Below are positions 22,139-23,536 of a stretch of DNA of 64,000 bases, piece by piece. The DNA is from Plasmodiophora brassicae (Eukaryota). Within the stretch, counting starts at the first letter, position 1. Every line of letters begins with the position of its first letter. The notes below the pieces were generated by a model. It was not told where the DNA came from. It was given only the letters and a program-made list of their open reading frames with translations, and searched no databases. The stretch covers positions 372,001 through 436,000 of the forward strand of contig CP145425.1 of NCBI GenBank assembly GCA_036867785.1. The letters run 5' to 3'. Position numbers and translations under genes: made by a program.

Positions 22139-23309
22139 TTCCGGATCGATAAGCGCACCGGTGAATGCAGCTGGCGAATACCCCGGCGTTTGCTGTGACT
22201 GCCCCAGTACGTACAATGAGGACTCTAACAATGTCTGGAACTCAGGCCGCTCGACGGGGTCCGTCAGTCAGGCGCGCGGTAGTGCGCAACGGGGGCGGAC
22301 TTTCGGACCCCCTTGGACACAGTGCACAACCTTTTTTTCACAGCACTCACAGCCTGGCGGCAGGGCGGCCAACGTGAACGCCGCAACTATAAATAAGAAC
22401 GTACGGGATATGGCACGGGACGGCACGGAACGGCACGGCACGGTGGGAAACCGGGTTTGCTGGGTAGGGGGCGTCGAGACGTACCTGGATCCGCTGTCGG
22501 CAGGCGTCCAGCGGCACTGGTGTGGTCGTGGCTCGGGTCGCCCATGATGGTCAGTGGCGGCGCTGCGGTCGCCAGGCGGTGCGGTCAGGTCCTTGCGGAC
22601 TCCGTGACGATCCAACCGGTTACCCAAACGGTTACCCAGCGGGCAGCGGGGTCTGTTAACTCTAGTAATCCGAATCCGTAGTTTGCCATCGTCCCTGGAA
22701 AAAATCTGCAATGTGGAGGCAGGCACAGTGTCGAGGTTGGCGGGACCACGTGAACGAGAGACTAGACCGGAATCTGGAATCCAGTGACGCCACGTATCGC
22801 GCGCGACGTTCTCCAGTTTCTGGCTTAGGGACCAGACTCTACAAGTCACTTGCATATCGTTAGCGGCCTGCGATGAAACGATGCGCCAACCCAGACTGCT
22901 GCGACTTCGTGCCGATCGAAGCGCGCGCCACGCAAAAGTACTGTGTGGCGGATGGGGCGTGCTCCTGTTTGGCTATATGCGGTACACACTCGAGGCTTTG
23001 GCAATGCGATCGGATATCCAACAGACGCTAGTCGAATCCGTCGCCGATGTCTTTCATGGGGGCCTCGCGCAACCGAACGCGCAAGTCGGATCACCAACCT
23101 CTCCTTCACCGTCGCCAGCAAATCGGCCCATCTCTGTACTCACCGCCGAGCAGGTTTGAATCAACACTCTAAAGGCTGTAAAATGCTCCACTCTAATTTT
23201 TAAACCCATGGATGCTCTTTGCAGCCGCGCCCTGCTTCTTGCTCGGACGTTTCGGCGTGCCTCACAGTGCACAAAGCAGAGAGTCACTACCGTCACACGA
23301 TCGATCCAC

Positions 23310-23381
23310 TGTAGACCGGACCGCCCAACTAGGCCACGGGAGCAGCTGCTCTCGTGGCCTAGTTGGGCGGTTAGGTCTACA
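23310..23381. mobile_element. 72-bp palindromic mini-element with CCAC TSD
   Basis: CCAC|TGTAGACC...GGTCTACA|CCAC; same family as 19723-20086. Confidence 0.9.
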
Positions 23382-23536
23382 CCACGAAGTCAGGTAGTGG
23401 TAGCCCACAAGGGGCCATTGTCCCGCGTGAAATGCGACCGGACGGGAAGACGGATTGTTGTATCGAACTGAAAAGCCCGAGAGAGTGGTGGCCTGGCGAT
23501 GACGACAAGCGATGGTGTGCGGGTGACCGAGGAGAT

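Follow-up and report, generated by a model that had tools for sequence, protein, structure and literature searches.

The window analysed here is a stretch of 64,000 nucleotides from the genome of the clubroot parasite Plasmodiophora brassicae, and it carries, beside a gene for a kinase-domain protein, a 72-bp element (23310-23381) enclosed by two copies of the tetranucleotide CCAC (23306-23309 and 23382-23385). The element consists of two 36-nt arms that abut without a spacer and are complementary at 33 of 36 positions, so that the sequence is as the preliminary description had it, a CCAC-flanked hairpin of two abutting TIRs. Folded as RNA, the 72-mer reaches -63.8 kcal/mol (z = -10.2), and none of 200 shuffled sequences was as stable. 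The features at this site, in window positions, are the following.

23121..26046, minus strand: multicopy host repeat that took the insertion, at least 12 copies, tandem on C13
23306..23309, plus strand: left TSD, CCAC, read from the sequence; 10 of 11 paralogues have one CCAC and no insertion here
23310..23345, plus strand: arm 1 (36 nt), starting TGTAGAC, with one common variant (position 30)
23346..23381, plus strand: arm 2 (36 nt), with terminal TCTACA and two private substitutions
23355..23366, plus strand: tRNA-type A box within arm 2, mirrored on the minus strand at 23325-23336 (PWM from 48 tRNA sequences of the genome)
23382..23385, plus strand: right TSD, CCAC
23537..25858, minus strand: 773-aa ORF of the host repeat with a C-terminal kinase domain (Pfam Pkinase, E 1.5e-18)

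The kinase gene belongs, together with its 3' flank, to a repeat present in at least 12 copies, which on C13 stand in tandem with a period of 3704 bp. Its ORF is 98% identical to a P. brassicae kinase-domain protein, and the middle part weakly resembles PD-(D/E)XK nuclease folds, the structure-atlas rows behind this resemblance being leads only. Among the 11 paralogues of the surrounding repeat that we fetched, 10 have an empty site with a single CCAC and the eleventh is truncated ahead of it. Contigs from four of four public runs (four studies) join 23305 directly to 23382, skipping 76 nt, a junction that may also originate from a paralogue. Because the paralogous sites are empty with one CCAC and the run contigs skip these 76 nt, we regard the 72-mer as a genuine insertion that duplicated 4 bp of its target. 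The stop codon of ORF 23537-25858 precedes it by 151 nt, in keeping with the earlier estimate of about 150 bp downstream of the nuclease-kinase stop. A position in the 3' UTR of this ORF is plausible, and two RNA-like runs, with splicing, have contigs that bridge the empty-site junction. Inside the same kinase repeat family there is another solo palindrome (L040).

The insertion had also been described as independent of, and of the same family as, a copy at 19723, which is borne out: the TSDs differ (CCAC vs GGAT), and the copy at 19723 proves to be a 364-bp compound element in which two palindromes flank a core and an additional arm, of a different allele, runs on to 20086. Its parts are listed below.

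19723..20086, no strand assigned: sibling long form, comprising palindrome 19723-19794, core 19795-19976 and palindrome 19977-20047; TSD GGAT
19794..19797, minus strand: T4 run falling exactly on the junction of core and palindrome, with its mirror image at 19974-19977 (plus strand)
19856..19908, plus strand: degenerate inner arm-containing unit of 53 nt inside the core; its ends resemble the LTR of the helper candidate (by eye)
19918..19921, minus strand: first T4 run past the B box, a candidate terminator that would give an RNA of about 95-105 nt
19948..19958, minus strand: B box, 33 nt past the A box (31-33 nt in the genome's class I tRNAs); 29.0 bits
19992..20003, minus strand: A box of the long form's tRNA-like head

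This long form was placed in one arm of a roughly 280-bp inverted repeat (window 19472-20721), the opposite arm of which is the empty site. Contigs of two runs guessed to be RNA skip 20289-20339 with GT..AG ends, and the region around 19472-20721 therefore appears to be spliced. Over the promoter half of the core, contig depth is about 2.5e5 at 19931 in run X19 and about 500 in run X15, both guessed to be RNA; since contig depth says nothing on RNA level, strand or ends, these values serve as a lead only.

We searched the whole genome (25.3 Mb in 20 contigs) for relatives of these two copies. A 16-nt arm motif gave 67 matches (none for a reversed-pattern control), the 14-nt terminus with one mismatch allowed gave 218 (control 14), and the 182-bp core gave 35. 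Pooled, with fragments counted and with the terminus search contributing the 100 matches listed of its 218, these amount to at least 77 family sites. An exact 4-bp TSD is present in 30 of the 35 copies with both termini intact (26 of 29 tabulated copies, L101-L103 and a 27-bp miniature; L068 and L036 have none), and a 5-bp TSD in none of 29 tested. The preliminary description had staked its reading on further copies with variable 4-bp TSDs, and it is these that the search recovered: 29 different tetranucleotides occur among the 31 listed, with 52% GC and no sequence preference. The smallest copy, at about L049 4460-4490 (G000 C9:11460), is a 27-bp collapsed palindrome with its 4-bp TSD intact.

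The TSD-bearing copies comprise 17 solo palindromes of 27-89 bp and 13 longer forms, namely seven palindrome-core-palindrome elements (316-364 bp), three internally deleted long forms, two inverted dimers around a shared central palindrome (L008 and L024; 584 and 624 bp) and one array of 2.4 kb. Arrays of mixed orientation occur at L030 and L057, and direct tandems are also present at L057 and in part of L030. A long form and a solo were not found at one paralogous site (a flank was shared by none of 29). The two ends of the core repeat each other in inverted orientation, exactly over 13 bp and in degenerate form over about 45 bp. The 72-mer is thus the terminal repeat of an element of about 325 bp, and hence a direct and an inverted repeat at once. 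The earlier view of it as a mobile unit made up of two TIRs gains no support here: it is the end of a 325-bp element, holds an A box only, and has no cognate DNA transposase among the candidates searched here. Most likely, the copy at 23310 is such an end that has become detached from the 325-base parasitic element.

Arm patterns gave no match outside the genome, at 24 nt against metagenome_contigs and at 22 nt against viral_contigs and genome_contigs (0 each), searches from which own-genome records were possibly excluded. No published account of the palindrome family was found in the literature searched, most subscription papers and Repbase lying outside that search. The accessible main text of a pangenome preprint (10.64898/2026.10.14.759018) contains 'MITE', 'palindrom' and 'inverted repeat' 0 times each. 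A tyrosine-recombinase element was considered for the family and rejected on its variable TSD. Tyrosine-recombinase elements leave no such TSD. As a separate observation, about 20 long ORFs in the genome (up to about 1700 aa; for example, G000 C4:1565085, C1:1439428 and C12:774417) match Gypsy-type RNase H and have no integrase match in the integrase list, and they are possibly tyrosine-recombinase retroelements.

Read from the palindrome centre toward the core, the long form carries an A box in the arm, 9 nt from the centre, and a B box in the core, 33 nt further on. Scored with matrices built from 48 tRNA sequences of the same genome, the pair reaches 29.0 bits (tRNA minimum 19.6, median 31.2), a value attained by none of 1000 dinucleotide shuffles and none of 594 control windows. 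Positions 3-23 of the arm agree with positions 1-21 of tRNA-Leu(CAG) at 17 of 21 sites, which one of 300 shuffles equalled. Ten further copies were scored: five lie between 22 and 29 bits on the strong head, one has 20.6 on its weaker opposite head, and four old or partial copies have only -12.9 to 13.2. On the strong strand a T4 run occurs 55 nt inside the core, and others coincide exactly with the two core/palindrome junctions; among 68 tRNA calls, 22 have T4 as the first T-run after them. The solo form has no B box after its A box.

ARAGORN called no tRNA over nine family loci, and Rfam found none over five, returning merely generic hairpin miRNA models under their gathering scores. Folding of the short RNA was no better than that of shuffles, and a permissive gapped alignment of the head with 48 tRNAs scored 47 against a 95th percentile of 48, which is not significant. 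The longest exact complement to a tRNA is 8-9 nt and lies away from the junction (51 unique tRNAs with 23 anticodons, without Met, Tyr, Ser, His, Pro, Asp and Trp); a 9-nt stretch complementary to tRNA-Leu(TAA), close to where the core starts, is likewise off the junction, and we did not accept it as a PBS. No PPT precedes the 3' repeat, the last 15 nt of the core holding 7-8 purines and ending in TTT.

A genome-wide search with the A-box...B-box pattern gave 37 matches (control 0), which resolve into 17 family copies, 16 tRNA-like genes and four related heads in the rDNA spacer. These four (L213:1492-1575, L214, L225 and L226) have a T4 after the boxes and lie at G000 C5:10797, C5:23705, C10:1267350 and C10:1280455, in repeats about 13 kb apart. 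The spacer head is antisense to the rRNA and about 1.1 kb off the 3' end of the large-subunit rRNA gene (seen for L213; loci of 3 kb). It aligns with the family head past the boxes (score 45 vs 16 ± 9; 5 of 5000 box-fixed shuffles; best tRNA 10), and is the closest relative of the element's head. The unit has no Rfam match and may be either a Pol III gene from which the head descends or an old insertion that has since been homogenised.

The arms also carry a record of copying. The combined indel and site-9 allele is common to 80 of 105 within-copy arm pairs (76%) against 24% between copies, a difference seen in 0 of 2000 permutations, and among the solos the indel allele agrees in all 11 classifiable arm pairs. 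Homogenisation is not seen at site 30 (282 of 2000 permutations). Six loci share cores identical over 182 bp and have differing arm alleles. Assembly error as the source of the arm alleles is ruled out, because the indel alleles are present in independent runs and in published small RNAs as well. The allele pattern is accounted for by the copying of a single template arm to several positions; in a DNA element that moved intact, arms and core should have stayed together. Palindromes undergo template switching or gene conversion that can homogenise arms, and either process could be an alternative source of the homogenisation.

Small RNAs from the arm had already been published. PMC13547706 reports 21-nt small RNAs and 234 miRNAs in Dicer-less P. 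brassicae, and seven of the 234 loci in its Table S8 are the arm (Pb-miR052a/b/c, 074a/b, 203 and 204), six of these seven rows including 2-3 flanking bases. We find that miR203 matches solo L010 exactly and miR204 matches solos L101 and L103. The preliminary suggestion that the hairpin could be a source of small RNAs is upheld in this way for the family and not for the copy at 23310, which matches none of the four published arm sequences exactly (2-5 mismatches). Six further core-strand motifs and three inner-arm motifs are absent from the supplement in the form accessible to us, and the accessible part of the paper does not state that the seven loci originate from a mobile family. Whatever the mechanism of mobility, one mobile family accounts for 7 of the 234 miRNA loci published for this crop pathogen, which lacks Dicer. 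The copy at 23310 itself is probably of little consequence for its host.

To find a possible helper, we inspected 12 full LTR elements. One clade of single-ORF chromodomain Gypsy elements has LTRs that begin with TGTAG and a 4-bp TSD in nine of ten complete elements, eight more having no complete 5' LTR in the fetched stretch; seven elements of other LTR families have 5-bp TSDs (by eye). Alone among the 12, the L092 family has an LTR that runs TGTAGAC...TCTACA and is followed by AAAC, matching the palindrome/core junction of the small element. In L092, this AAAC opens a 12-bp palindrome at the expected PBS position, the two LTRs are 100% identical, and an ORF of 1623 aa encodes RT, RNase H, integrase and a chromodomain. 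The family has nine copies (by PPT motif), with identical LTR pairs in L092 and L113. Past the tips and the four junction bases, we found no homology between the small element and the L092 helper. Palindromes of 8-12 bp stand directly behind the 5' LTR, at the PBS position, in the single-ORF chromodomain Gypsy elements L092, L097, L099, L086 and L091; in L087, L088, L023 and L095, there are instead 9-11 nt complementary to the element's own LTR, like Tf1-type self-priming. Of the 77 counted family sites, 28 lie within 10 kb of an integrase match (8.5% expected) and 12 near the TGTAG clade (2.9% expected), an enrichment for which either targeting or simply the tolerance of repeat-rich regions may be responsible. 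The two copies in the window are far from clusters of LTR elements.

On these data we lean, with somewhat better than even confidence, toward a non-autonomous element that is transcribed by Pol III, is probably self-primed and is copied by the RT and integrase of a chromodomain Gypsy element, the 72-mer being a promoter-less product of its end only. The parts of this reading that we infer are transcription, priming and mobilisation. Since Pol III initiates some 12-22 nt upstream of an A box, transcription would begin 3-13 nt past the palindrome centre and stop at a T4 run; the U-rich 3' end of the RNA would pair flush behind the arm and prime the helper RT, mimicking the palindromic primer site of the helper. 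The arm would then be copied into a short cDNA with a self-complementary 3' end, and second-strand synthesis or cross-priming of two such cDNAs would yield zero-spacer palindromes, snap-back on a full-length cDNA giving inverted dimers. Insertion by the Gypsy integrase would leave the TG...CA ends and the 4-bp TSD. In folding calculations with a 10-nt leader, the 3' end of an RNA terminated at the junction T4 pairs behind the arm in all 24 strand/copy cases (P ≥ 0.99). When the leader is shortened to 0-5 nt, this pairing is lost on the strong-promoter strand of several copies, the window long form included, because the arm then pairs with the degenerate inner copy. Since the core ends carry a 13-bp inverted repeat, the 3' pairing arises automatically and is not independent evidence. 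The short transcript self-pairs in the major core subfamily (P 0.9-0.97 with leaders of at least 3 nt) and not in the minor one, that is, in two of four copies tested.

Within this preferred reading the solos could have arisen in two ways. Deletion between the terminal palindromes, which are also direct repeats, would resemble the formation of solo LTRs and is a tentative possibility, to which we attach a slightly larger part of our confidence in the Pol III reading than to direct integration of the short cDNA. Taken as a full pathway, in which the RNA primes itself with its U-tail, 36 bases are copied up to its 5' end, two cDNAs cross-prime and the Gypsy integrase inserts the result, the origin of the 72-bp palindromes as direct RT products is rather doubtful. 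A duplex of 72 bp seems short for one intasome to grip both ends, and would need to behave as two hairpins. As it is without a B box, the solo is probably a dead end, its hairpin feeding the small-RNA pathway when read through.

The family could also be an ordinary cut-and-paste, MADE1-like MITE moved by a Ginger-like or other DDE transposase, with the long form as a composite or gap-repair derivative, and we consider this unlikely while taking it seriously. The family is short, non-coding and multicopy and has TIRs and a TSD, as is expected of MITEs; its inverted symmetry is perfect, the 17 solos outnumber the 13 long forms, and internal deletions down to 27 bp retain the ends and the TSD. 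MADE1, the source of hsa-mir-548, is likewise a nearly spacerless palindrome of about 80 bp (37+6+37 bp) that yields annotated miRNAs, according to the parts of PMC1784062 available. MADE1 derives from the mariner Hsmar1, whereas the search here turned up no transposase partner, the 4-mer of the TSD varies, and the palindrome doubles as the terminal repeat of a longer element. TGTNR termini and a 4-bp TSD are shared with the non-autonomous Ginger1 and Ginger2 elements (TIRs of 40-270 bp) as far as these are described in the accessible sections of PMC2836005 and PMC3845634. However, none of the 31 TSDs fits the CCGG or CCGT/ACGG target of Ginger1, none is TATA as in the AT-rich RTATAY target of Ginger2 (52% GC here), and none fits the AWWT TSD of the Sola1 MITE (PMC3845634, same sections). 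Of 56 integrase matches without an upstream RNase H match, from a search in which 150 of 199 candidates were scored, 22 were examined; none of these 22 is a Ginger-like, integrase-only TIR element, all mapping onto Copia or Gypsy polyproteins, and none is flanked by a TIR pair with a TSD. Nor did an arm match end a coding element among the matches inspected in the terminus search (100 listed of 218). Cut-and-paste movement leaves unexplained the A and B boxes, for which the accessible Ginger descriptions have no Pol III counterpart, as well as the junction T4 and the exchange of arms on identical cores.

Copying could instead take place at the DNA level, with extruded hairpins priming host polymerases by a rolling-hairpin or template-switching route, a Gypsy integrase capturing the DNA and the tRNA-like head being a relic. 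The inverted dimers (L008 and L024), the mixed-orientation arrays (L030 and L057), the homogenised arms and the integrase-type ends with their TSD would all fit such a process. It would call for a nickase or resolvase partner, of which none was seen, and the direct tandems at L057 and in part of L030 count against it; moreover, intact boxes at exact tRNA spacing and a T4 flush with the junction would be superfluous, and we judge this route improbable. Far less credible still is the proposal that the copy at 23310 is a regulatory hairpin, either a miRNA gene or a 3' UTR silencing signal, selected by the host for its kinase repeat. Its location 151 nt past the stop, the annotation of family arms as miRNAs and the second solo, L040, in the same repeat family lend it some appeal, but the insertion is absent from 10 of 11 paralogues, it has three arm mismatches and exactly matches none of the four published sequences, and the insertion sites of the family show no sequence preference.

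Returning to the Pol III, Gypsy-mobilised reading, the 72-mer is a real insertion and a variant within known non-autonomous elements, and by analogy the palindrome element would work most like Helenus/TRIMp3, the tRNA-derived non-autonomous LTR elements of PMC10886601 (compared here from the accessible text). Both have a short non-coding core (<1 kb) between two direct terminal repeats with TG...CA ends, tRNA-derived A and B boxes, solo repeats and a TSD of 4-5 bp, of which the 4-bp class is linked to Gypsy helpers; at 316-364 bp, our element is near the lower bound of that group (311 bp). In contrast to Helenus/TRIMp3, the element has a perfect palindrome as its terminal repeat, inverted repeats at the ends of its core and inverted dimers among its copies. 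Whereas the tRNA-like sequence of Helenus/TRIMp3 lies within the LTR, the A box is here in the repeat and the B box in the core, and neither a PPT nor, against the 51 tRNAs compared, a tRNA-complementary PBS was seen. We keep the family out of Helenus/TRIMp3 because its B box lies outside the repeat, it has no PPT and it shows no PBS to these tRNAs. Self-complementary priming was not found in Helenus, as stated in the same text. In showing no PBS to the tRNAs compared, the family resembles self-primed or PBS-less LTR elements such as Tf1 and the fungal GalEa, with its conserved hairpin site (PMC5445492 and PMC6934838, in part); these have a self-complementary site directly behind the 5' repeat, and the candidate helper clade is likewise palindromic there. 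In Tf1, this site pairs with the first bases of the transcript, whereas the primer proposed here would be the RNA's own 3' end at the Pol III terminator.

Should this reading hold, an element that looks like a MITE would be a retroelement product. Other 'MITEs' that have no spacer, end in TG...CA and lack a transposase partner would then deserve re-examination, and self-priming and palindromic terminal repeats would be added to the TRIMp3 group. The element would also offer a substrate of 100-220 nt for RT-initiation tests on a Gypsy clade with a palindrome at its primer site. In the more doubtful case that the 72-bp palindromes are direct RT products, a self-priming, SINE-like parasite of an LTR retrotransposon would scatter MITE-looking hairpins, and with them miRNA loci, without a DNA transposase.

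Elsewhere in the window, ankyrin-repeat ORFs lie at 20829-21698 and 52191-55853, the former with an intron-like skip (21792-21850) in two runs guessed to be RNA. Long fold-back inverted repeats with arms of up to 149 nt, unrelated to the palindrome family, occupy 47987-48456, 57836-59132 and 61133-61263.
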